A DNA stretch of 64,000 nt from Candidatus Fermentibacterota bacterium. Its GTDB lineage: Bacteria > Fermentibacterota > Fermentibacteria > Fermentibacterales > JCC-6. The notes under the pieces are model-generated. The model searched no databases and was not told the origin of the DNA. It was given only the letters and a program-made list of their open reading frames with translations. The stretch's first letter is position 1. Each line of letters begins with the position of its first letter. Shown here in pieces: positions 51,204-64,000 of this stretch. The position numbers and the translations under genes were made by a program. Location of the stretch: positions 1,110-65,109 of the forward strand of contig JAUVIR010000005.1 in NCBI GenBank assembly GCA_030592645.1, in the 5' to 3' direction.

Positions 51204-51276
51204 CGCTGAAATGGAGTGAGAGTCATCCAGTTTCATCTATTGAATGATTATCAATGACTTAACAGGGAGGAAGAAA

Positions 51277-52929
51277 ATGAGAAGTGCGAAAATATTTCAC
51301 GGTGCGATGATAATAGCAGTATTGATGATTCTTTCAGGTATTGCCTGGAGTATCGATATCTCAAATGGTTATTACTACTCAACCGAATCGAGAGGTCATA
51401 ATCCACAGGTGATAACATCTTACAATTTCGGTCCTCAGATCTATTACTATTCCGGAACTTACGACAGAACATATTTCCTGTGGATGCAGCGGGGTGGAAC
51501 GGGATACTCTATCGAAAATATGGTTCTGTACTACGATCATACTACCGAAGAACTTTCCAATTCATACGGCGTTGATCCAGGCATACCAGGAGCAACTGAC
51601 TGCCATGCCCACGGAGCCCTGGTGGTTGCCGATGACGGTCACATAATTGTGGTTCATGAAAGGCTGTGGAATACCAGCGGCAGCGGTCATAACGGGAGAT
51701 ATCAGATCAAGCGTTCGGTAAACCCTGAAGATCCTTCAGCCGGGTTCACACTGGTTCACGAAACCGGAATGGGAAACTGCTATCCCAAGATCTGGAAAAC
51801 AGCGAATGGTGATCTTTTTGTGTCATCAAGGTATGGAAGTGATTCTTACTACGATCATTACCGTATAATGCTCTACAAATCCACAGACAACGGTCTGACA
51901 TGGGATACCGGAAACATCGTTGTGAATTTTGGAACCGCAAAGAACTACTGGGCGTATCATTCAAGAATAATACAGAGCGACAGTGATGGAATCCATCTTG
52001 CGGTAAATCGCTGTGATCGCGATCCCGGCTACGGCTACCCGGACTGTTATTACCTGAACAGTGAAGACGGAGAGATCTGGCAGAACATAGATGCTTCTTT
52101 CACAAAGAATATCATCACAGACGGGCCTCTCACCTGCGACGAGATGGACAGCTACTGCCTGGTACAGCACCTTCCGGGAAATAACGAAGTTACCTCTCTG
52201 GCCTCGGGATGCTTTTCACCGGCAGGCAATCTCTACTTCATCAATTGTGAAACATTCCGTGACAATCCAGATCCTGCCGACTGGTATCTGCGCTACTGGG
52301 AAGATGATGAATGGAAGAAAATAGTTATTCCTCATAACGACGAATTCATATGGATATACGGAATACATTGTATTACGGATGAAGAATTCGACATTTACCT
52401 GGAATACTGCGGAACACCCATGCATGAAATACAGATATGGAAAACAACTGACAGAGGCTTGACCTGGAATGCTGTCGAGGAAATAACCAGCGGAAGTACT
52501 TTCGATCACAGATACCCCGTACTTACATCCAATCTTGACGATTCACCATATCTTTCATTGACATCAAGCTATCTTAACGCGGGAACCTGTGCCGATTTCT
52601 TTATACTGTCACGGGAGAAACCAACCACATCTATAGAAGAAGGGTCAGCATCAGGTTTTCCTGCCGATGTGATACTCTATCAGAACAGCCCCAATCCTGT
52701 AAGTCTTCATACGGCTATTTCTTATACACTGGCGGAAACAGGAGCCGTCTCGCTGAGCGTCTACAACATCGACGGCAGGCTTGTGGAAACCCTCGTTAAC
52801 GGAGAAATGCAGGATGCAGGGAATCACTCATGCCTGTGGGATACCGGTGAAATATGCTCGGGTATCTACTTCTATCGCATTACAACCGGGAATGTTACCG
52901 AAACAAGGATGTGTACCGTATTGAGATAA
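51277..52929 (+). CDS. Secreted BNR-4/BNR-repeat beta-propeller protein with CTD
   Basis: DCHAHGALVVADDGHI, YPK, STDNGLTW, SEDGEIW, TTDRGLTW; CTD QNSPNP...SGIYFY. Confidence 0.78.
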   Translation: MRSAKIFHGAMIIAVLMILSGIAWSIDISNGYYYSTESRGHNPQVITSYNFGPQIYYYSGTYDRTYFLWMQRGGTGYSIENMVLYYDHTTEELSNSYGVDPGIPGATDCHAHGALVVADDGHIIVVHERLWNTSGSGHNGRYQIKRSVNPEDPSAGFTLVHETGMGNCYPKIWKTANGDLFVSSRYGSDSYYDHYRIMLYKSTDNGLTWDTGNIVVNFGTAKNYWAYHSRIIQSDSDGIHLAVNRCDRDPGYGYPDCYYLNSEDGEIWQNIDASFTKNIITDGPLTCDEMDSYCLVQHLPGNNEVTSLASGCFSPAGNLYFINCETFRDNPDPADWYLRYWEDDEWKKIVIPHNDEFIWIYGIHCITDEEFDIYLEYCGTPMHEIQIWKTTDRGLTWNAVEEITSGSTFDHRYPVLTSNLDDSPYLSLTSSYLNAGTCADFFILSREKPTTSIEEGSASGFPADVILYQNSPNPVSLHTAISYTLAETGAVSLSVYNIDGRLVETLVNGEMQDAGNHSCLWDTGEICSGIYFYRITTGNVTETRMCTVLR

Positions 52930-53290
52930 CAATAGAATCTGCCCCTCTGCTTTTCATGTTGTAATGAGGATTTCCTCCACATATACAGAATTCTCATCAG
53001 CTGTGATTGATAAGTTTCCATTGATGTCTGTTCCTGTATCTGTCTTGAAACAATGCTGTAATCCGTTGGTTTCCGGCTTCAGGAGAGAAGTGTGCCCTGA
53101 TGTGTGGTTCGGGGAGCTTATCTACTACTTATCAATTGACGCGGGGTGTATTCGGAAAGTATGGTCAGTTTCAGGCAGTAATCGGAGGTTTATTGGGACG
53201 AACGGGTTTATTTAGGAGCAAGAAATGGAATTCTGGAAATTCCATTTTCCTACTGCTTATTTATAGGCCATCCCTAGCAAGGAAACATTA

Positions 53291-54205
53291 ATGAATACAT
53301 CGAAACAATGAATTGGATTCGTCGGTATTATTGAAATTGTATGTGTTATCCTGTTTTCGGGACGATCTATCGCTTTCGGCTTCATTGATGCTCTGAATCA
53401 GGGAACACCATTACCCTGCGCGGTGCCAAAATGTCTGGCTTTCGGAGGTGCGATGACAGTGGGAGTTGATGACGCGTATTCTTTGTTTCTCAATCCTGCG
53501 GGAATCCCAGGTTTCGACGCTGAAGCGATTTCCCTCGGCATTAGCCTCGGTCACTGGACCAAACCATTCCTGTCGAGAGTATTTCTGTTTCCAGATGAGA
53601 GGATATACCATTCTCATTATATGGAGCCGGAAGCTTTGGGATTACCGATAATCTGTCGGCAGCCGCAGGCTGGTGCATGGTCTCCTGCTTTGACTATACA
53701 GGTATAAATCACATCTACAGCATACCTCACTTCCCCGATTCGATCACTATGTCACAGTACCTCGAATCAAGTGGATACCTTCATGAGGCCCTTGCTGGCC
53801 TTTCATACTCCCTCTCCGATAACCTGAACATAGGAGTATCAGGAGGAATGAGGTTCGGATCAGCGGCTATTAACAAGATCGAATATGAATACACATCTGA
53901 TTCCACTGTAATCACCGAGTATGACCTGTCCTGGAGCGAGAATCAGTTCTGCTGGCATGGCGGTATCAGGGCTGGATTCAGTTTTGGTAAGGCTGGACTT
54001 GTAATTGCATCCCCCACTGATCACTATCCCTTAAGAACGGCGATCGGAGTTATGATACTTGCTGAACACCTGAGGAATTTGGAGACAGTTCGGATATTAC
54101 TACAGGAACAGATCAAGAAGAGGCCTTCCCGATGCTGATCAGTACTATGAATGCTTCGATGAATCGACATCAATATACAGTGCAGTTGTATTCTACAGGC
54201 TTTAA
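53291..54205 (+). pseudogene. Degraded FadL/PorV-like outer-membrane beta-barrel gene
   Basis: ATG 53291, in-frame TGA at codon 7, signal peptide, LAFGGA..GVDDAYSLFLNPAG, at least two frameshifts, last fragment ends AVVFYRL*. Confidence 0.6.
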
Positions 54206-54362
54206 CCCGTTCAAGTCGTTACCGTTTGTATATCTCTTTAAGATGATATTATTAAAACTTATGGCGTTGAGAACATGCAACGTTGGGACACTAGTAATTA
54301 TCTTTGAAATATTCAGGTTATTGTAATATCTGTTTTCATTCCTGGGGAGGTGTTCTGTCAGT

Positions 54363-55544
54363 TCACCTTATCAGGTCCGGCTTTCGTGGTATATGCCGAA
54401 CAACGAAGAAGGTTACGATGGCTACAAGCCCTGCGAATGTGAAGACGGCCCATGGCGCAATGGTTACCCAGAGGATTCCGCCTATCAGCGGGACTATCAT
54501 CGAGACGGCATGATCGAGCGTTCCCCCCAGCCCCATCGTCGGGATCATATCATTCTTGTCATGTACGATACTCGACAGGTAAGTGGTTCTTGCCATCGCC
54601 AGGCTGAACAGCAGTTCATCCATGATAAAGAATGAATACAGAAGAAGCAGCGCTACTCCAGGCTGAAACACATTCGGAACCACAGCATAACCCGTGCACA
54701 GCAATGCTATCAGAACGGCATCGACCATCAGTATCGTTCTCTCGCCGAATCTGTCTATCATATTGCCGAACCAGGGTTTGATGAAAAGTCCCAGGATCGC
54801 GCTGATTCCCATGACAACAGCAAGATCGGGCGCGGTCTGAGCGAACAGGCTTACCAGCATCCACGGAGCAAAAGTCAGGAAAATCTGTTTTCTCGCCCCG
54901 AAAAGCATACAGAGCAGATAGTAGAGCCTGTATTCCTTCCGATAGAGGAACCGCTTCACTTTTTTTACAGATCTGTTTTTCTCTTTCCTCTCCGGTAGAG
55001 TGAATGAGAATATCGCTCCGAGAAGCATGATAACGGCTGCAAATATCCAGATCGCCCGGAAATCCGCTTTAAAATGCTCCATCAGCAGCCATACAGCGGC
55101 TGTACCGATTATCAGGCCTCCGGACCGGAATGCACCGATCCGTCCCAGTATCCAGCCTCTTCGCTCCACTCCTGCAAGATCAATGGCCACCGCATCCCGG
55201 AGAGGCATGAATGCATGCGTCGATGTCGACCACAGAACCATGAAAATGATAAATACCGGCAGAGTTTTAACCAGAAACGCAAGGCCGATGAATGCAGCTA
55301 TTCCAATGAGGAAGACTGCTCCGAACGCGTTATGCCTCCGCATTGAGACAATGATTCCGGTAATGAATACCAGCAGAAATCCCGGAAGCTCACGAGGGAT
55401 CTCAAGTGCCCCCCGAACATCCCCTTCAATACCGATGTGGTTCTTCAGATAGTCAGGCATGACCGATGAGAAGGTTGCCCCGGCGCAAGCCATGAGAGCC
55501 ACAATAATGAGCAGTTTTATCAGTGACGGTTTCATGTCTGACAT
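54363..55544 (-). CDS. MFS transporter
   Basis: About 12 TM segments, RELPG, DRFGER; last gene of the methyltransfer operon. Confidence 0.9.
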   Translation of the reverse strand: MSDMKPSLIKLLIIVALMACAGATFSSVMPDYLKNHIGIEGDVRGALEIPRELPGFLLVFITGIIVSMRRHNAFGAVFLIGIAAFIGLAFLVKTLPVFIIFMVLWSTSTHAFMPLRDAVAIDLAGVERRGWILGRIGAFRSGGLIIGTAAVWLLMEHFKADFRAIWIFAAVIMLLGAIFSFTLPERKEKNRSVKKVKRFLYRKEYRLYYLLCMLFGARKQIFLTFAPWMLVSLFAQTAPDLAVVMGISAILGLFIKPWFGNMIDRFGERTILMVDAVLIALLCTGYAVVPNVFQPGVALLLLYSFFIMDELLFSLAMARTTYLSSIVHDKNDMIPTMGLGGTLDHAVSMIVPLIGGILWVTIAPWAVFTFAGLVAIVTFFVVRHIPRKPDLIR

Positions 55545-56434
55545 TCAGGAGATGGCGAGACCGCGTTCTTAATAGCCCTGATATGCGCAGGGCCGGTTCC
55601 GCAGCAGCCGCCGATTATCGACACGCCGGCATCAACCAGTTCCTTCGCCATTGAAGCCATGAACTCAGGTGATTCAGGATAAATAAGCTCCCCGTTTTCG
55701 ATCAATGGAAGCCCGGCGTTAGACTGGATGATAAGAGGAAGAGCTGTGTGCTTTCTGTACTCCCTGGCAATCCTTATCATGTTCTCGATACCGTTCCCGC
55801 AGTTGGAACCTGTAACATCCGCACCGGCTTCCTCGAGCGCATGAGCCGCTTTCTCTATGGTTACGCCCATTATTGTAAAAAAGCCCTTGGGGGTTGCGTC
55901 AAAAGTCATGGTCGTCATTACCGGGATTCCCGGCGCCCTCTCTTTAGCAGCCTTCAGAGCCAGAAGCATTTCATTCAGATCCATCATCGTCTCGATGCAG
56001 ATAACATCGCATCCCGATTCAGCAAAAGCCTGCATCTGAATTTCAAAACTCTCGTAAACAGCTTCAGGATCGGTATCGCCGTAAGGTTTAAGGATTTTCC
56101 CGCAGGGACCGCAGGACCCCGATACGTAAGCTCTGCCCGAAACAGCTTTCAAAACGGCGGCAACCGCATTTCTGTTGATCTGGGGCGCGGCATCCTCAAG
56201 AGAATAGGATGCAAGTTTCAGAGGTGATCCCCCGAACGTATTCGTCTGGATTATATCGGCTCCCGCATCGAGGTAGAGCCTGGCGATTTCCTCAAGCACA
56301 TCAGGCCTTGAGAGGTTCATCGCTTCAGGGCATTCGCCGCTTTTAAGCCCCCTTTCGAACAGCATGGTTCCCATTGCTCCGTCCCCAACCAGTATTTCGC
56401 CGCTGCGGAGACGTTCAAGCAGATCGATCATCAA
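55532..56434 (-). CDS. Homocysteine S-methyltransferase domain protein (stand-alone MetH Hcy module)
   Basis: DGAMGT, AGADIIQTNTFG, IETM, GSNCGNG, IIGGCCGT (Zn ligands). Confidence 0.93.
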   Translation of the reverse strand: MMIDLLERLRSGEILVGDGAMGTMLFERGLKSGECPEAMNLSRPDVLEEIARLYLDAGADIIQTNTFGGSPLKLASYSLEDAAPQINRNAVAAVLKAVSGRAYVSGSCGPCGKILKPYGDTDPEAVYESFEIQMQAFAESGCDVICIETMMDLNEMLLALKAAKERAPGIPVMTTMTFDATPKGFFTIMGVTIEKAAHALEEAGADVTGSNCGNGIENMIRIAREYRKHTALPLIIQSNAGLPLIENGELIYPESPEFMASMAKELVDAGVSIIGGCCGTGPAHIRAIKNAVSPSPECQT

Positions 56435-57072
56435 CTGTTCACAGGGAAGAACGATTCGACTGTTTCAACGGCATTTGCGCCATCGTAACTGTATGCGTCG
56501 GCTCCAATTTCAAGCGCGTACTCTTTTGAAACGGGCGCCCCGCCCACGATAATCCTGACCCTGCCGTACAATCCCTCATCCTTTGCAAGGTCAACGACCT
56601 TTTTCATGACAGGCATGGTTGTGGTGAGAAGAGCGGACATTCCTATCACATGCGCGTTCTCTTCTTTAGCCGTACTGATGAACTTCTCCGCCGGGACATC
56701 GTTTCCAAGGTCGATAACCTCAAATCCGGCTCCTTTAAGGAGAATCGCAACCAGGTTCTTCCCTATATCATGCAGGTCATTTTTAACGGAACCTATTACA
56801 ACCTTGCCCCGGATCGGGATCCCTTCTTTTATCAGAAGAGGTTTCAGGAGCTCCATCGCCCCGTTCATCGCCCTTGCGGCAAGAAGAACGTCGGGAAGAA
56901 AAATGTCATGATCCTTGAATTTTCTGCCAACGATATTCATTCCGGCTATCAGACCACTGTTCAGTATTTCTTTCGGAGGTATCTGTTTCTCGATAGCGTC
57001 TTTTGTGAGCACGGCGACTTTCTCATCCAGACCGTTCTGCAGATTTAAAGAAATCTGATCCAGTAATTCCAT
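56431..57072 (-). CDS. Corrinoid (B12-binding) protein, MttC/MetH-like
   Basis: FLPDVLLAARAM, DLHDIGKNLV (DxHxxG), MSALLTTTM, IVGGAP. Confidence 0.93.
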   Translation of the reverse strand: MELLDQISLNLQNGLDEKVAVLTKDAIEKQIPPKEILNSGLIAGMNIVGRKFKDHDIFLPDVLLAARAMNGAMELLKPLLIKEGIPIRGKVVIGSVKNDLHDIGKNLVAILLKGAGFEVIDLGNDVPAEKFISTAKEENAHVIGMSALLTTTMPVMKKVVDLAKDEGLYGRVRIIVGGAPVSKEYALEIGADAYSYDGANAVETVESFFPVNS

Positions 57073-57099
57073 ATTTATCCTCCTGTATCCCTGCGGATA

Positions 57100-57807
57100 T
57101 TACTTCAAATTCCGCATTCTCTCGGTACATGTTTTTGTCCTGCATATGTCACAGAAAGTGTACGAATTCACAAATTCATGAATTTCCCCTGCCCCTGCAA
57201 TAAGCACCCCGGACACGGACTTGATCGGGCTCATAAGGCAGCTGTCATTCAATGTTATCCCTATTTCTTCGGGGCGAAGAACTTCAAACAGTTTTTTCTG
57301 TCCGCTTATGTTCCAACCGCAGTAACCGGGACTGTAGCTTAATACCTGCCAGGAAGATGAAGCTGGTTCGCTTTCAATAAGATCCGACTTCAGGTGCGCA
57401 GCAGCAAGATCAGTAAGTTTATCAGCGGCATAGGACGAGACAGAATCGAGCATGTATCCGAAAGCGTAATCTCCGTTATCAAAAAGCTCCGTAACCTTTT
57501 CGCTGAGAACTGCTCCCAGTGTAACAGCGAACAGGGCCAGATGTCCGCTTTTTCTGTAAATCTCTTCGACAGGATTCTCTTTTTCGTTATCCCCTTCTCC
57601 GCGGAACACTTCCCTGAAATCTTTGATGGTTATCCCGGCTATGATCCCTCTCAAAACTGCAAGTTCATAAAAAAGCTCGATCGATTCTCCGTAGATCCGT
57701 TCGAAGTTATCGGTGAGTTCAGCATCACGGGGAATTCCCTGACTGCGGAGTATATCCAGGCGGTCAAGAACTATATCTTCCGGGCCAAATTCAACGATCG
57801 ATCTCAT
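57100..57807 (-). CDS. MetH reactivation (AdoMet-binding)-like stand-alone domain
   Basis: LFAVTLG, GYMLD, YSPGYCGW, GITLNDSCLMSPIKSVSG, CDIC....C. Confidence 0.85.
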   Translation of the reverse strand: MRSIVEFGPEDIVLDRLDILRSQGIPRDAELTDNFERIYGESIELFYELAVLRGIIAGITIKDFREVFRGEGDNEKENPVEEIYRKSGHLALFAVTLGAVLSEKVTELFDNGDYAFGYMLDSVSSYAADKLTDLAAAHLKSDLIESEPASSSWQVLSYSPGYCGWNISGQKKLFEVLRPEEIGITLNDSCLMSPIKSVSGVLIAGAGEIHEFVNSYTFCDICRTKTCTERMRNLK

Positions 57808-59264
57808 AGATCCTCATGCGGGAGGGAATCCATCCCATGCTTTGCAGCTTCCGTTTTCATCAAACCGTTCATTTCCGCCAGAACATCATCTGATAATCCG
57901 GTGGGTTCGTACCCGCCAAGCAGCTTTGCTATCTCGCTTTTCGCCCGGTCTCCTATTGTCAGGCTTCCCTCTTCCTTCCATCTTGAACTGTTCGCCCTGT
58001 CTATCACAGCCCCGGGGAAATAGTGCTCATCCTGGAGGTATTTCCTTGTATGGTTCGCTATCAGAAGGTGTTTCTCCCGTAGAAGTTCCTCGAAGATCGG
58101 CTGAGAGGGGAAATCCTCTTTCGGTTCTATTCCCCTTGCAAGCCTGAGGGTCATTCCGCAGATCTCGTTATCAACCACAAGTTTTTCAAGGCTCTGGCAG
58201 CTTTCAAAATCAAGCATTCCCGGCCCGGATATGTTGTTTATCCCCGCCAGTGCGGCGAGAGTCGCGCCCATTGAGGTTTCAAGCCCTGCCTGCGCATCCA
58301 GCTGTTTCGCATCGCTCAGGGCGATATACGCCTGAGTCGGAAGGTTCAGATACTTACCTATTTCATTGTAGGCGCAATCTATCATCTGCGTTTCCACAGC
58401 TCCCATAGGTGTGGTCTCGTACCGTACATCGAATGCGGCTGGCGAACCGCCGTAGATAACAGGAGTGCCGGGCCGGGTGAGCTGGCTCAGCACGACACCG
58501 CTCAGAGTCTCCGCCGTATGCTGCACGAGGCTTCCAACCAGGGTCACGGGAGCCATGAAGCCGGAGAGCGGCATAGAGATGTACTCAACGGGTATGAAGT
58601 GCTTCGCGCAATCGACCAGATTCTGAGAAGTTACGTCGCTCCACTTCAATGGGGCGGTCGGGCAGCAGGAGAATATCGAGAGAGGTTTAGCAGCAAGGGC
58701 ATCGGTACTTCCCCGTACCGCCACCAGCAGATCCTTCATTACATCAAAAGCATCAATAGTAAATGCGCCTGTAACTACTGGTTTCTCGCAGTACAGAAGG
58801 CTGAGGAACAGCCTGTAGCTGTCCGATATTTTCTCATGCACATCTGATGGAATGAATGCGGTGCTCTGCGAAGCGATGTTATCCAGCCTGCTTACAATCT
58901 TCGCATACTCTACATAATCGGCAGTCAACGGTTTTCTTATCTCGCCGCTGTGGGGATCGAGAATATTGATAGCCGCGGAGCCGGGAGTGAAGTAAACATT
59001 ATGACCCGTCAGGTCATGTGTCTGCCTTCCCATAACATCGAAGAGCTTAACCGAATCCGGCGCTGCTGCAAGAGCCTTATCGATAATATCAGCCGTGAAA
59101 TGCACATGGTTTGTCTCCGAATCGACTGAAGCTCCATGATCCGACAGCATAGATAGAACACCGTCGTTATGGATTTCCATGCCAAGGTTACACAGAATAT
59201 CCCGCGCTTCTGAAATGATCCTTTCGATAAGCTCATCGCTCAGCAACCTGAATAACGGCCTCAT
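57804..59264 (-). CDS. MttB-superfamily (trimethylamine methyltransferase family) non-pyrrolysine methyltransferase
   Basis: PMPLSGFMAPVTLVGSLVQHTAETLSG, PGTPVIYG, SDAKQLDAQAG, GML; continuous ORF with no in-frame TAG. Confidence 0.92.
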   Translation of the reverse strand: MRPLFRLLSDELIERIISEARDILCNLGMEIHNDGVLSMLSDHGASVDSETNHVHFTADIIDKALAAAPDSVKLFDVMGRQTHDLTGHNVYFTPGSAAINILDPHSGEIRKPLTADYVEYAKIVSRLDNIASQSTAFIPSDVHEKISDSYRLFLSLLYCEKPVVTGAFTIDAFDVMKDLLVAVRGSTDALAAKPLSIFSCCPTAPLKWSDVTSQNLVDCAKHFIPVEYISMPLSGFMAPVTLVGSLVQHTAETLSGVVLSQLTRPGTPVIYGGSPAAFDVRYETTPMGAVETQMIDCAYNEIGKYLNLPTQAYIALSDAKQLDAQAGLETSMGATLAALAGINNISGPGMLDFESCQSLEKLVVDNEICGMTLRLARGIEPKEDFPSQPIFEELLREKHLLIANHTRKYLQDEHYFPGAVIDRANSSRWKEEGSLTIGDRAKSEIAKLLGGYEPTGLSDDVLAEMNGLMKTEAAKHGMDSLPHEDL

Positions 59265-59311
59265 AAAAGCTCCTTAATGCTTCAAGAGAATCAGATACTG
59301 AAGAACAACGG

Positions 59312-59340
59312 AAAGTAGAGATGCAACACTTGCATGTCAA
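59312..59340 (-). promoter_or_regulatory. Sigma-70 promoter of the methyltransfer operon with operator-like palindrome in the spacer
   Basis: Minus strand TTGACA(59340-59335)-N17-TACTTT(59317-59312); ATGCAA-N3-TTGCAT at 59321-59335. Confidence 0.65.
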
Positions 59341-59475
59341 GCTTCACAGAGTTGTTCAATCGTTAATGTAATGAAGGTGTTACCAGGTTAGCACAGTAAT
59401 TTAGTGTTGCTATTATAGCACACACTATTAATCGGAATTGATTTCATCTGCCATACCCGATAGAACTACTTCAGT

Positions 59476-61740
59476 TTACCTCTTTATAATGACAACCCGG
59501 CAGTATCGATGCGCACCGCCGGAACCGCTTACAGAACAGAGGTAAACCCCGTCCGGCACTCGTCTACCGTAATCATCAAGGCCGTTCCAGAACAGTGAAA
59601 ATATTCCAGCTGGAGCCTCAAATTCGGGGAGCTTACGCATGACCCTTCCTGCAAGGTCGTACACAGTCACCTGCAGCAAAGTGCTTACAGATAGCTCCAC
59701 TTCCAGCGAAAAGCCGTCTGAAGATGGATTCGGACTCACTGACAACCGATCAATAACCTGCTGCTGCGTATTTCCGGAGTTCTCAATGCCCTGAAGGTCT
59801 TCAAGGCGAAACATGCCCCCTCCGTAGGTGGAAACCAGCAATGCAGATCCGCTCATGACCATTGGTGAGTTGCCATAAATATGAGTTACACTGAGATCTC
59901 CTGTCAGCATCTCCCATGTATTGCCCAGATCGGGCGTTCTCCAAACTCCGCCACGCATAACGAATGAAGTATCCACCTCCGCACCATTGAAGCCGGCGAA
60001 AAGCGTATCCTCTTTAAAGAGCAGGTCACTCACCCATACAGGCTTCTCCCAGCCTCCGGATATCTCCTGCGTATAGGTCGGGTAGACCCTGAAAATGTTT
60101 CCCGTTTCTGTGCCTGTATACACATCTCCCCCGTACCATTCCAGAGACAGAAGGTTGTAGGCGGAAAGGTCAACGTAACTCCACGTCTGTCCCTGATCGA
60201 TGCTTACATAGAGTCCCGCAGTTGTCGCTGCGTAGAAGGTACCGCTCTGTGGAACCTGCAGGAACCTGGTGCACATGATCTGCAGAACCTGCTGAAAGCT
60301 CCCTCCTCCGTTAATGCTTCTGTAGATGCCGTAGGTGCCGAACTCCAGGTCCCACTCCGCGAGTAGAATAAGTGAGGGGTCGGTCTCATCCACAATAAGA
60401 TCGAATACTATCTTGTCACCCTGACGAATTGCCGTCCATGACGAAAAACCATCGTTCGACCTGAATGCCCCGTTGCGGAAAGTACCGCAGTACATGGTGT
60501 CCGAACTGCCGGGACTGTAATGAACAAAGAAGCCGTGTGCATCGGGACCCAGCCTCTCCCAGTTCTGCCCGCCATCGGTAGTGCGGGAAAGGCAGGGCAT
60601 GTTGATAAAGGGCATGTAACTACCCAGGTTTGCAGCGTAAACCGTCTCGGGGTCATTCGGGTCAACGGCAAGACCGGAGAGGTAAGAAGACGTTGGAGCA
60701 GATGGCAGAACAGTCCAGTTCTGCGCGCCATCCTCGGAGAAAAAGATGGGGCTGTTGGCAAACGCACCGCAGAACAGGCTGTCCCCGAGGGTCGATAACC
60801 CCATGAGCATAAGATTGTACGGCAGGGGAGGTGAGGTAACATCCGTCCACTCCCCGGAAGTTGATGTGTACTTAACGAAACCGGGGAAAATGCAGGCGTA
60901 TATCTCAGTTACCGGGCTGGTTCGAGCTATTGAAACCTCAGGTGTGTACACCGAGCTTAAGCTGAACTCGAAGCTGGAACCGTAATCCCAGCTCAGGTAT
61001 ATCCCGTAGGGATTTACTGCGGCAGCTACCACATTGTCATGGCTGTCCAGCTGCCAGACCGAGGCATCCGCGGGAATTGAGGATATCTGATCCCATGTAT
61101 TTCCGTTGGAGGAGCGGTACAACCCCTGCCCTTCAAGACCTGCCAGAAGTGTACCGTCACCGCAGCGGCAGATGCAGAGAGCCGTCTCGCCCTGCAGGCC
61201 GCACGGTTCCCAGTTCTGCCCTCCGTCCGCAGATACGTAGATTCCATCCCCCGGTTTTGGCGGGTCCCCCTCCCTGTCCAGACCGGTGCTTATGTAAAGG
61301 GAATCTCCATCATCGGAGGCTATCACGAGGTCGGACACCATGCGGGAAGCGATGCTGGATAGACCGTCAGTGATCTGCTGCCAGCTCTGACCACCGTTCA
61401 GGGATTTTAAAAGCCCGTACCTTCCGTAGGGATCGCAAATGTAGATGATATCAGGATTCAAGGGGTTCAGAATGATCTGCCAGGCTGTCATGTCGGGCCA
61501 TTCACCGGTCATCAGCTCCCAGGCTTGACCCCCATCAATTGTTTTCCATAGACCGCCGGAATCATCACTGCCTGCATAAATTACCTGAGGGTTGCCGGGA
61601 TGAACAGCAAAATCCTTGAAGTATCCCCCCTGCTGCCCACACCGCTCCCAGGAAAAACCCATAGCTGACCCCGCAAAAGAAAGGCAAAGTAGATACGAAG
61701 TGAAAAGAATACGATTGCAAGCTGTTACAAATATCCTCAT
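59476..61740 (-). CDS. Secreted BNR/Asp-box (VPS10/xyloglucanase-like) beta-propeller protein with CTD
   Basis: Repeated KTxDGGxxW / SxDGGxxW boxes; CTD VSPNP...VYDLAGRV...WNGLDDYG...GVY. Confidence 0.82.
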   Translation of the reverse strand: MRIFVTACNRILFTSYLLCLSFAGSAMGFSWERCGQQGGYFKDFAVHPGNPQVIYAGSDDSGGLWKTIDGGQAWELMTGEWPDMTAWQIILNPLNPDIIYICDPYGRYGLLKSLNGGQSWQQITDGLSSIASRMVSDLVIASDDGDSLYISTGLDREGDPPKPGDGIYVSADGGQNWEPCGLQGETALCICRCGDGTLLAGLEGQGLYRSSNGNTWDQISSIPADASVWQLDSHDNVVAAAVNPYGIYLSWDYGSSFEFSLSSVYTPEVSIARTSPVTEIYACIFPGFVKYTSTSGEWTDVTSPPLPYNLMLMGLSTLGDSLFCGAFANSPIFFSEDGAQNWTVLPSAPTSSYLSGLAVDPNDPETVYAANLGSYMPFINMPCLSRTTDGGQNWERLGPDAHGFFVHYSPGSSDTMYCGTFRNGAFRSNDGFSSWTAIRQGDKIVFDLIVDETDPSLILLAEWDLEFGTYGIYRSINGGGSFQQVLQIMCTRFLQVPQSGTFYAATTAGLYVSIDQGQTWSYVDLSAYNLLSLEWYGGDVYTGTETGNIFRVYPTYTQEISGGWEKPVWVSDLLFKEDTLFAGFNGAEVDTSFVMRGGVWRTPDLGNTWEMLTGDLSVTHIYGNSPMVMSGSALLVSTYGGGMFRLEDLQGIENSGNTQQQVIDRLSVSPNPSSDGFSLEVELSVSTLLQVTVYDLAGRVMRKLPEFEAPAGIFSLFWNGLDDYGRRVPDGVYLCSVSGSGGAHRYCRVVIIKR

Positions 61741-61981
61741 AGTGCCTTCCTCTGTTAAAAAAGCTTTGAATAGAAGAATCTACTTCTCAAGTATAAAGAA
61801 GAACATGCAACATGTAATCAACAGAATTATTCGCTATTTGACTGAGCGGGAGCTGTGACTGTAATATTAGCGGCATAGTTCTATCAGCGGCAGTCATTGC
61901 AGGCAACAACGTTCCGCAGGCTATCGAAGATTTCAGCCTTGTGATCTTGCTGGATCCGGCTTCAGGCAGAGCTGACAGGTT

Positions 61982-62710
61982 TCAGATAAAGCTAAGCTGT
62001 CCCGAGGGCTCCGGCATCTCGTCCCATATCCTGCCGTCCAGTGTCCTCCCGCCCGAGGAATGATGCGCCCCGCCCCACTGTTTGAAGTAGAAGGAAATCC
62101 CCTCGCTTATGCACCTGTCCCGCAGAGCGCGCGCCCATTCGATCTTCATCGGCCGGGCATCAGGACCGGATTCACCGCCAACCGCGGCCCAGTGAATACC
62201 AGCAAGGTTCACATCGCTCACATCGGACAGCAGCGGCTCGAAGGAGATGAAACGAACTATAGCATCCACCCTGCGCAGGCGCTCAAGACGATGGTAAACC
62301 TTCCTGTTCTCTACAGTCGTCCCCGCCCACACATTGTCAGGCCAGGATATTCTCCCCGAGAACTCAGCCATACGCTCTGGTCTCTTCGAAAGTATCTGGA
62401 ACACATGCCTGTCGCAGCGGCGCATCACATCCAGGACCTTTAGAATAAAAGCGTCCGGTACGTCGGGATGCATCAAATCTCCCATGGAAGTAACGAATAC
62501 AATCCTTGGCTTTCTCCATCCAAGAGGTATCTCCAGCGCATCCTCATGCACAGCAGCAGAGAATCCCCGGCGATACTTATCAACGCCCATGGCCTGCAGC
62601 TTCAGGGCGATACCCCTGGCGTAGCAATGATCGCACCCCTCGCTCACCGGGCTGCATCCGGTAACGGGGTTCCAGGTCTCGTGCTTCCACTCTGTTCGAG
62701 CTGCAGCCAC
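61982..62710 (-). CDS. DUF5131 (phage Gp37/Gp68-like) radical-SAM-like protein
   Basis: TWNPVTGCSPVSEGCDHCYA, SMGDLMH, FQILSKRPER, FISFEPLL, VGGESG, FYFKQWGG. Confidence 0.92.
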   Translation of the reverse strand: MAAARTEWKHETWNPVTGCSPVSEGCDHCYARGIALKLQAMGVDKYRRGFSAAVHEDALEIPLGWRKPRIVFVTSMGDLMHPDVPDAFILKVLDVMRRCDRHVFQILSKRPERMAEFSGRISWPDNVWAGTTVENRKVYHRLERLRRVDAIVRFISFEPLLSDVSDVNLAGIHWAAVGGESGPDARPMKIEWARALRDRCISEGISFYFKQWGGAHHSSGGRTLDGRIWDEMPEPSGQLSFI

Positions 62711-62718
62711 GTTAAAGA

Positions 62719-63903
62719 TTACTGCTTACCGGTAGATTCGGTCAGCAGTGTTACATTACCGGTGGTGAAGAACCCGTCGAAACCGCCGTACCTCTGAATG
62801 TACTCGTTCACAAGTAGCGTATTCGGGGACCCCAGAGAGAAAGTCTGCTGAAGACCCTCTTCGGGCGATCCAACCAGCTCAAGCAGAAAACCCATCCCGT
62901 CATCGACCAGCGCTTTGTAGGTGGAGTCGATCTTCCCGGTTCTGAATGCAAGGTGGTGCACCCTTGTGCCGTAATTCCTTATGAACTGCTCCGTGGGTCC
63001 CACATCCTCCTGCCCGTTGTCAGGCAGGATCCCCGATGTAAAGACCATCGCGAAATCGTTCTCCGACAGCCGAGCAACACTGGTGATGGAGTTGAAACCC
63101 TTTACATAAATGGCCATCGAAAAGTTGTAGTTGGTCAGCTCCATGAACTCGATAACAGCCTCATCCCTATGCTGTGCATGAATCCTGGTCGCGGTATGAT
63201 CAAGTTCGAAAATGCGGCTCAGATGAGCGGACTGCGGTTTTACGAACTCCCAGTCCAGGCTTACGGACCCCCGTGTCCTGAAATCCATTGACTTACCCTT
63301 CCACTGTACGAAACCGATGGAGGAACCGTGGAACTGCGAAGGGATGCTCTGCGTGTAAAGCATACTGTCCGTATCAAGGATGGAGTCCTCCTGGAAATAC
63401 ACGCCCCTTGAACTCTGGATCGATGTGTATCTGCCAAGGTCGGGAGTGGTGAAGACAAACGTCTCCAGATGCGTATTGGGAAGATGCGCTGCTTTCGGAG
63501 CGGCATTGAAGCTCGAGAAGGGATTCGTCCCGGTTTTTCGTGACCGGATGAGAATCGAGGGAGAACCTGCAGCCTTCAGAACACACGTCCTGAAACGATC
63601 ATCCTCGAATCCATCGGAATAGACAAAGCCGGTGTATCTCAGGAACTCTTTTACCGCTTCGCGCTGCCTTTCCGGTTCTGTGTTTATGATCACAAAACTC
63701 AAACCGCCCACCAGCCCCCCAAGCCCCAGGTCCCGCCGCTCTTCCTGTACCCTTGGAACTTCCTTCTCCAGAAATTCATCGCTGTTGCGAAAGTTATAAA
63801 CATGATGTTCATCAAGATGGCAGGTCGGGCAGCTCCCGGAAGCCTCCTCCTCAACGAAGTGAACAGCCATGCATTTTGGACAGATGAGCTTGTTCATCGC
63901 CAC
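62719..63903 (-). CDS. HPPD-like VOC-fold metalloenzyme with N-terminal zinc ribbon
   Basis: CPKC...CPTC; DHTATR, G..VHHLAF, EYIQR, GFFT.GNV..L as in the HPPD C-terminal domain. Confidence 0.75.
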   Translation of the reverse strand: MAMNKLICPKCMAVHFVEEEASGSCPTCHLDEHHVYNFRNSDEFLEKEVPRVQEERRDLGLGGLVGGLSFVIINTEPERQREAVKEFLRYTGFVYSDGFEDDRFRTCVLKAAGSPSILIRSRKTGTNPFSSFNAAPKAAHLPNTHLETFVFTTPDLGRYTSIQSSRGVYFQEDSILDTDSMLYTQSIPSQFHGSSIGFVQWKGKSMDFRTRGSVSLDWEFVKPQSAHLSRIFELDHTATRIHAQHRDEAVIEFMELTNYNFSMAIYVKGFNSITSVARLSENDFAMVFTSGILPDNGQEDVGPTEQFIRNYGTRVHHLAFRTGKIDSTYKALVDDGMGFLLELVGSPEEGLQQTFSLGSPNTLLVNEYIQRYGGFDGFFTTGNVTLLTESTGKQ

Positions 63904-63941
63904 AGTATACCTCCAGTTACCGGGTTTTGTATCAGTTTTCT

Positions 63942-64000
63942 TCAGTAGATAATATTTCCCACTATAGTGGTCGTCAAAGCCATTGTGCTACTCATCATAT
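63942..64000 (-). CDS. Possible C-terminal end of a gene entering from the right edge
   Basis: Open frame MMSSTMALTTTIVGNIIY* ending 39 nt before the HPPD-like start. Confidence 0.3.
   Translation of the reverse strand, partial: MMSSTMALTTTIVGNIIY

Follow-up and report, generated by a model that had tools for sequence, protein, structure and literature searches.

Can a bacterium make methionine from a methylated compound without folate? The question is raised by an operon at positions 54363-59264 (minus strand) of a 64,000-nucleotide stretch of contig JAUVIR010000005.1 (Candidatus Fermentibacterota bacterium, assembly GCA_030592645.1, positions 1,110 to 65,109), hereafter the window. The operon encodes an MttB-superfamily methyltransferase, an activation protein (Act), a corrinoid protein (CoP), a homocysteine S-methyltransferase (HcyMT) and an MFS permease. 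An earlier note on the window proposed a split B12-dependent methionine synthase, in which the MttB-type enzyme takes the place of the folate module of MetH. Homology and gene linkage, from which the pathway steps given below are derived, favour a corrinoid-dependent system, complete in itself, that transfers a methyl group from a donor to homocysteine and amounts to a folate-independent methionine synthase (probability about 0.65). The five genes are:

57804..59264, minus strand: MttB-superfamily methyltransferase, 486 amino acids (aa), PF06253 at 249 bits
57100..57807, minus strand: Act, 235 aa, PF02965 (Met_synt_B12) at 38 bits, a partial match to model positions 120-249 only
56431..57072, minus strand: CoP, 213 aa, PF02607 and PF02310 (cap and Rossmann)
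55532..56434, minus strand: HcyMT, 300 aa, PF02574 (S-methyl_trans) at 234 bits
54363..55544, minus strand: MFS permease, 393 aa, PF07690 (MFS_1) at 78.8 bits

The listing of open reading frames (ORFs) agrees with five adjoining minus-strand genes at these coordinates, and Pfam and NCBIfam matches bear out the domain make-up proposed earlier: MttB, activation domain, corrinoid protein and Hcy methyltransferase, with no pterin-binding domain (PF00809) within the operon. The genes overlap or nearly abut, as the note had it, in three overlaps and one 27-bp spacer. MttB and Act overlap by 4 bp (ATGA), Act and CoP are separated by the spacer, which carries a GGAGG ribosome-binding site, CoP and HcyMT overlap in TTGATGA, where an ATG one codon further on may be the true start, and HcyMT and the permease share 13 bp, or only 4 bp if the second ATG is the start. 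Such overlaps are consistent with translational coupling.

Probable methionine synthesis in genomes with the cassette

The four genes from MttB to HcyMT form a cassette that recurs in other genomes. Fifty cassette-bearing genomes were searched for PF00809, and subsets of them for MetE, methylenetetrahydrofolate reductase (MTHFR) and S-adenosylhomocysteine (SAH) hydrolase. Two closed WOR-3 chromosomes, CP070686 (G008, L016) and CP070802 (G021, L032), encode the cassette and SAH hydrolase; their pterin matches are of the FolP type only, with no MetH pterin module, and neither MetE nor MTHFR was found in them. Since SAH hydrolase is encoded, these genomes generate homocysteine, and they have no other recognisable route for its remethylation. 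The methyl group must therefore arrive pre-formed from outside, and the organisms would be without de novo methyl-group synthesis for methionine. This pattern supports the cassette as a folate-independent methionine synthase and is the strongest evidence for it obtained here; with it, the claim that methionine is made from a methylated compound without folate becomes plausible. A closed Zixibacteria genome (G049) likewise has no MetH pterin module and no MTHFR, and contains a short MetE-like protein. This absence is also seen in several incomplete metagenome-assembled genomes.

Relatives of the window MttB protein were sought by a degenerate-pattern search of GTDB genomes, one for each species, which gave 275 stretches encoding such proteins. 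The best 80 of these were analysed; they are 68-93% identical, and 68-75% identical across phyla. The five window proteins were compared with the 80 loci by tblastn, and 58 loci with at least 2.4 kb of downstream sequence were informative. In 49 of the 58, drawn from more than 10 phyla, the genes follow the order MttB-Act-CoP-HcyMT, and this recurrence is far beyond chance. The exceptions are one locus with Act moved upstream, three without Act, one without HcyMT, two with MttB and Act only and two with MttB alone. A MetH-type pterin domain occurs in none of the 80 related loci. Hosts include Fermentibacterota, WOR-3, Planctomycetota, Stahlbacteria, Ignavibacteriota, Bacteroidota, Chlorobiota, Acidobacteriota, Aminicenantes, Gemmatimonadota, Zixibacteria, TA06 and one Clostridia bin.

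The 80 MttB proteins form a tight clade in a FastTree tree, on a long branch away from the outgroups, Methanosarcina barkeri MttB and Desulfitobacterium hafniense MtgB. Phyla are only partly clustered in this tree (20 label changes, where at least 11 would be needed), which points to some horizontal spread. Neighbouring genes, as clustered from 394 flanking ORFs, are lineage-specific only (sigma factor, UPF0047, cyclophilin, ABC-F, IS200 transposase and others), and no downstream catabolic gene is conserved beside the cassette in this set.

Three loci of Terriglobia/Acidobacteriota (L075, L079 and L083) carry a clade MttB of about 70% identity with no Act, CoP or HcyMT within their flanks. The neighbours of the solitary gene in L079 are unrelated (AIR-synthase-like, PD40 repeats), and its partner genes may be located in another part of the genome.

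Proposed pathway and its components

In the proposed pathway, the MttB-clade TIM-barrel enzyme (MT1) would move a methyl group from the donor, probably a methylated amine that carries a positive charge and no acidic group, to the Co(I) form of the corrinoid protein. The PF02574 zinc enzyme (MT2) would pass it on from the corrinoid protein to homocysteine, giving methionine. On oxidation to Co(II), the TM0269-like Act would restore the cofactor by reductive methylation with S-adenosylmethionine (AdoMet). Act may have a metal or Fe-S centre, with its four invariant cysteines as ligands. In a sub-lineage of Aegiribacteria, to which the window belongs, the co-translated MFS permease may take up the donor, alone or in exchange for the product.

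CoP has the motif DxHxxG (D99-L-H101-D-I-G104), conserved in 63 homologues, and is recognised as a B12 module. Its nearest models are MtgC_2 (202 bits), pyl_corrinoid (190 bits) and MtbC (187 bits), with metH at 148 bits, and it shares 45% identity with the B12 domain in the MetH of the same genome. HcyMT is recognised as a MetH-type Hcy module and has the motifs DGAMGT, ETM.D, GSNCG (C211) and GGCCG (C286, C287), conserved in 53 homologues; C211, C286 and C287 make up its Cys3 zinc site. The closest models are PRK08645 (YitJ, 283 bits) and PRK07534 (BHMT/MtgE type, 222 bits), with metH at 172 bits, and the identity to the Hcy domain of the same genome's MetH is 30.5%.

A product other than methionine would result if the acceptor were a thiol other than homocysteine, or if methyl-corrinoid were supplied to HgcA or another methyltransferase. 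The donor varies among PF02574 enzymes, a few loci have MttB but no HcyMT, and MttB homologues have been speculated to feed HgcA in Zixibacteria and others (PMC12484752, 2025). Against this stand the conserved Hcy-domain fingerprints (DGAMGT, ETM.D and the Cys3 zinc site), the linkage of HcyMT to the cassette in 53 of the 58 informative loci, and flanks in which neither hgcAB nor a CoM-type MT2 gene recurs. An acceptor of this kind is very unlikely.

The best match of the Act profile in the PDB is 1J6R (TM0269; E = 1.4e-10). The AF2 model (pLDDT 95.1) again finds 1J6R first in Foldseek (E = 3e-11, TM 0.81), followed by the MetH reactivation domains of E. coli, Thermus and human. By sequence and predicted fold, Act belongs with TM0269 among the MetH-type activation proteins that stand alone. 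Every Act homologue compared (59/59 and 66/66) has four cysteines, C163 in a loop SPGYCGW and the C-terminal C219-x2-C222-x4-C227, that the alignments show to be absent from TM0269 and MetH; they may form a metal or Fe-S site. With Act of the TM0269 type, CoP preferring the MtgC, MtbC and pyl_corrinoid models and HcyMT closest to YitJ and BHMT, the description of the parts as a split MetH does not hold: judged from their nearest models, the cassette modules are not recent MetH fragments.

The host genome and the weight of the evidence

The host assembly (2.58 Mb, 93% complete) has two matches to PF00809, namely FolP in a folate-biosynthesis cluster and a MetH of 791 aa. This MetH (C63:1384-3759, equal to L002:751-3126, minus strand) has the modules Hcy-pterin-B12 and no activation domain. 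The ORF directly upstream of it (C63:3722-5548) encodes a YitJ-like bifunctional HcyMT-MTHFR of about 600 aa (PRK08645, 411 bits). Neither MetE nor RamA (PF14574) was found in the genome search. The check that the earlier note had proposed, for a pterin-bearing MetH, metE, metF and ramA, is thus answered in two ways: MetH with its pterin module and a YitJ-like MTHFR are present, while metE and ramA were not detected. As the normal three-module MetH and MTHFR are retained, on a contig other than that of the cassette, MttB does not replace the folate module, and the cassette is a parallel second system with no swapped MetH module.

Act is the only activation-domain gene of the genome in Pfam and clade-specific profile searches. 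Because this single gene lies in the MttB operon, on another contig than metH, MetH may depend on the Act of the cassette, or on some other activator. A precedent for such a division is Thermotoga, where TM0269 is a separate protein required to reactivate the three-module MetH, according to Huang et al. (2007) as cited in PMC7857596. An ORF of 234 aa beside metH was considered as a second activation protein and rejected, being unrelated (hhalign probability 0.1); the genome profile search finds the cassette copy only.

Several points weigh against a methionine synthase. With a complete MetH and MTHFR route, this host does not need the cassette merely to make methionine. The distribution of the cassette in Fermentibacterota is patchy: of 70 species genomes 19 have the MttB clade, and these belong to 3 of 14 genera, which makes the cassette an accessory trait there. 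Loci with MttB alone or without Act exist, if few among the 58. The use of AdoMet by Act is plausible and not assured, since in the AdoMet motif RxxxGY only the last two residues (G161, Y162) are conserved, the Arg being Ser157 here and Arg in 35 of 66 homologues. The reactivation of SAM type rather than RamA type, proposed earlier, is accordingly borne out as far as the MetH/TM0269 fold and the genome without detectable RamA are concerned, but not by the Arg of the motif. A full-text literature search retrieved no experiments on the cassette.

Some of these points suit an alternative with the same chemistry and another purpose. The system may be catabolic or methyl-scavenging, feeding methyl groups into the methionine/SAM cycle as BHMT does, so that the demethylated product is the real goal, as a source of carbon or nitrogen or through detoxification, or is exported. 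A host that already has MetH and MTHFR, the accessory and patchy occurrence of the cassette, and permeases that differ by lineage (MFS here, APC in L033, L034 and L062), as would suit an exchange of substrate and product, are in its favour, and the MtgBCD system of Ruegeria is mainly catabolic (PMC12478193). However, there are no conserved genes for further breakdown of the demethylated product beside the cassette, one homocysteine is used per methyl group, so that turnover of the SAM cycle limits the flux, and in the closed WOR-3 genomes the cassette is the only recognisable methionine route. A catabolic role is therefore possible but rather unlikely, and a folate-independent methionine synthase is preferred.

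The MttB-type enzyme and the methyl donor

The methyltransferase of the operon is the only MttB homologue of the genome. It belongs to the MttB superfamily, with a PF06253 match that covers positions 29-493 of the 500 of the model. Among solved structures, it matches M. barkeri MttB (7xcl; 1.2e-49, 173 bits) and D. hafniense MtgB (9yce; 2.9e-48, 168 bits), and by these scores it is about equally distant from true MttB and MtgB.

Pyrrolysine (Pyl) 334 of M. barkeri MttB aligns to Leu316, and as the codon there is CTG, no UAG is read in the gene. The frame has no internal stop, and the assignment to the non-Pyl type made in the earlier note is confirmed by both features. In MttB, Gly110 and Tyr364 position the pyrrolysine chemistry (PMC9842639); they correspond to S96 and S346 in the window protein. 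The model for true trimethylamine methyltransferase, TIGR02369, gives 364.5 bits, below its cut-off of 525. On these grounds (no Pyl codon, S96/S346 for Gly110/Tyr364, TIGR02369 below cut-off), identity with the true trimethylamine methyltransferase MttB was rejected. A further trace of kinship to that enzyme lies inside the gene:

58220..58318, minus strand: PYLIS_3-like match inside the MttB coding sequence (Rfam, sub-threshold)

The match begins one base into the Leu316 codon and scores 33.6 bits (E = 8.8e-5) against a gathering score of 38. It is read as a remnant of the homology between the coding sequences of this gene and true mttB, immediately past the position of the Pyl codon, and would be no functional element.

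Glycine betaine is bound in MtgB by Y97, R312, H348 and F356, and R312 is reported to be kept in every characterised non-Pyl member, all of which act on acidic quaternary amines (PMC13080624). The four residues align to S96, Q311, S346 and E354 in the window protein, where the partner of H348 is uncertain by one residue due to an indel of one aa, with no basic residue near. S96, Q311, S346 and E354 are invariant in 80 of 80 clade members, and L316 is found in 78 of 80. Identity with MtgB, the glycine betaine methyltransferase, was rejected as all four betaine-binding residues are replaced.

The earlier note had named glycine betaine, carnitine and proline betaine as donors; with the binding residues of MtgB replaced, R312 included, they are unlikely. 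The invariant Q311 in place of R312 speaks against glycine betaine, carnitine, proline betaine, gamma-butyrobetaine and phosphocholine. The invariant Glu354, where MtgB has its cation-pi Phe, and with it D352 may point to a substrate that is cationic and lacks an acidic group.

A methionine synthase of the MtgB type, dependent on glycine betaine (or on carnitine or proline betaine), would have in its favour that the score with MtgB falls little short of that with MttB (168 and 173 bits), that the best NCBIfam match of CoP is MtgC_2, and that Ruegeria provides a precedent (PMC12478193). It is nevertheless very improbable, given the replacement of Y97/R312/H348/F356 by S96/Q311/S346/E354 in 80 of 80 clade members, the reported retention of R312 by every characterised member with an acidic quaternary amine as substrate (PMC13080624), and flanks that carry neither BCCT nor ProU/OpuA-type transporters beside any cassette.

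A more far-reaching form of the folate-independent methionine synthase combines these features, and is offered tentatively, as a whole being rather doubtful. The MttB clade, marked by S96/Q311/L316/S346/E354, would activate a non-acidic methylated compound of a kind that none of the characterised superfamily members handles without pyrrolysine, with protonated trimethylamine, another small methylamine, choline-type cations and tetramethylammonium as candidates. The methyl group would pass to a methionine synthase that needs no folate, and in some lineages, e.g., the closed WOR-3 genomes, this synthase would be the only entry to the methyl cycle. Act would be a self-contained reductive reactivase whose cysteines bind an Fe-S or metal centre that gives the electron to Co(II), and in Aegiribacteria it might also service the MetH that has no activation domain.

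Permeases beside the cassette

The earlier note described a pathway with import through the MFS permease. The gene is coupled to the operon in the window, where such a step is possible; it is confined to a sub-lineage and weakly supported, and import by this protein is not general to the system. Among the related loci, it adjoins the cassette only in the window and in L006, L008 and L011, and other Aegiribacteria have the cassette without it. In 12 genomes sampled from the genus it is present only where it is cassette-linked, and the window's genome has a single copy of this type. Homologues of 50-60% identity in other genera of Fermentibacterota lie beside PepF, in a housekeeping neighbourhood with no cassette. 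With these homologues and a generic MFS_1 annotation only, the protein gives no hint of its substrate, and the gene is a lineage-specific add-on in part of the genus.

In another Aegiribacteria genome, an IS200-like (Y1_Tnp) transposase gene (L010:9519-10529, minus strand) lies 4 bp downstream of the cassette, in the position of the window's MFS gene. APC-family permeases adjoin the cassette in Bacteroidota/Ignavibacteriota (L033:6347-7675, L034:22-1293 and L062:40-1407); the one in L033 resembles arginine/agmatine or basic amino acid/polyamine antiporters, and those in L034 and L062 are L-type. A survey of flanking genes found no betaine transporter of the BCCT or ProU/OpuA type beside any cassette.

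Relation to known systems

A non-pyrrolysine MtgB/MttB homologue together with a homocysteine S-methyltransferase, a corrinoid protein and an activation protein was reported from Ca. Electryoneota and "diverse bacteria" (Williams et al., 2022, Environ Microbiol; PMC9324843), with the hypothesis of a novel corrinoid-dependent methionine synthesis whose methyl donor was not known. As far as its description allows a match, the Electryoneota cluster is like that of the window in its four components, in the hypothesis attached to it and in its coexistence with a normal MetH; its MttB homologue is described as part of an uncharacterised clade nearer MttB than MtgB. The host differs, being Fermentibacterota (Aegiribacteria) here, with an MFS permease in the operon, and the Electryoneota MetH is reported as full length whereas that of the window's genome has no activation domain. 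The main text of PMC9324843 contains no analysis of pocket residues, no cysteine signature and no experiments. The novelty suggested in the earlier note was too strong, as cluster and hypothesis were already published in 2022: the operon holds a further member of an already described type of cassette, and new here are the Fermentibacterota host and the MFS add-on.

In the MtgBCDE system of Ruegeria pomeroyi, studied with the split MetH of Phaeobacter inhibens, methyl groups flow from MtgB to MtgC to MtgE (Mausz et al., 2025; PMC12478193). As in the window, a separate MttB-family MT1, a corrinoid protein and an Hcy module (MtgE, 'BHMT'-like) link the demethylation of methylated amines to methionine. 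Ruegeria, however, requires the pterin module MtgD for both functions, while the cassette has no pterin gene, and reactivation there is by RamA and DUF1638, in contrast to a TM0269-like activator in a genome without detectable RamA. The Ruegeria genes are scattered, the donor is glycine betaine and MtgC is CmuA-related (PMC12478193), whereas the window protein has no betaine-binding residues. Identity with a Ruegeria-type MtgBCDE system was rejected, as the cassette has no pterin gene and no PF14574 RamA was found in the genome.

Thermotoga maritima TM0268/TM0269 also combine a three-module MetH with a separate activation protein of about 200-235 aa. TM0269 adjoins metH and has neither C163 nor the CxxCx4C tail, whereas the window Act lies in an MttB cassette, on a contig other than that of metH.

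MtgB of D. hafniense, MtcB, MtpB, MtyB and MthB are members of the same superfamily and methylate cognate corrinoid proteins, and MtgB shares with the window protein a Leu at the Pyl position. The characterised non-Pyl members pass the methyl group to tetrahydrofolate or coenzyme M, use RamA, and bind acidic quaternary amines by the conserved Arg (R312). The window protein differs in its invariant Gln for this Arg and in having Ser and Glu for residues of the aromatic cage.

The core methionine synthases MesA-D make methionine without methyl-folate, with methyl groups probably from corrinoid proteins (Price et al., 2021; PMC7857596). Unlike HcyMT, which belongs to PF02574, they are MetE-like (PF01717), and MttB is not mentioned in PMC7857596.

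If the cassette acts as proposed, many uncultured lineages of anaerobic or sediment habitats would make methionine, and refill the methyl pool of SAM, from a pre-formed methyl compound of the environment and not from folate. The scale is indicated by MttB relatives in at least 275 GTDB species genomes and by the cassette confirmed in 49 of the 58 informative loci. B12 and methylated-amine cycling would be tied to basic anabolism, and genomes without MetH, MetE and MTHFR would be explained. Identification of the donor would give the MttB superfamily a new substrate class and could reveal methyl transfer from a non-acidic amine without pyrrolysine. The window adds Fermentibacterota to the host range, together with two local twists, the permease in the operon and a MetH without its own activation domain.

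Upstream region and neighbouring genes

The operon is preceded by an intergenic region with a ribosome-binding site:

59265..59475, minus strand: upstream intergenic region, with AGGAG 6 nt 5' of the MttB ATG

An Rfam E-value scan of positions 53000-64000 found no riboswitch upstream of the operon, its sole match being the PYLIS_3 relic, and a promoter and terminator scan around the operon gave nothing above shuffled expectation.

Neighbours on both sides (BNR/sortilin-like proteins sorted by the type IX secretion system (T9SS) and a DUF5131 protein) are unrelated to the operon. Large BNR/sortilin-like proteins with T9SS C-terminal sorting domains are encoded on either side, at 59476-61740 (minus strand) and 51244-52929 (plus strand); the former matches the F510_1955-family glycosylhydrolase model at 134 bits, under its cut-off. 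Further on, a DUF5131 protein at 61982-62710 (minus strand) is weakly similar to 'radical SAM mobile pair protein A'. It is adjoined by an ORF of 394 aa without a Pfam family (62719-63903, minus strand), and the two genes may be a mobile pair.

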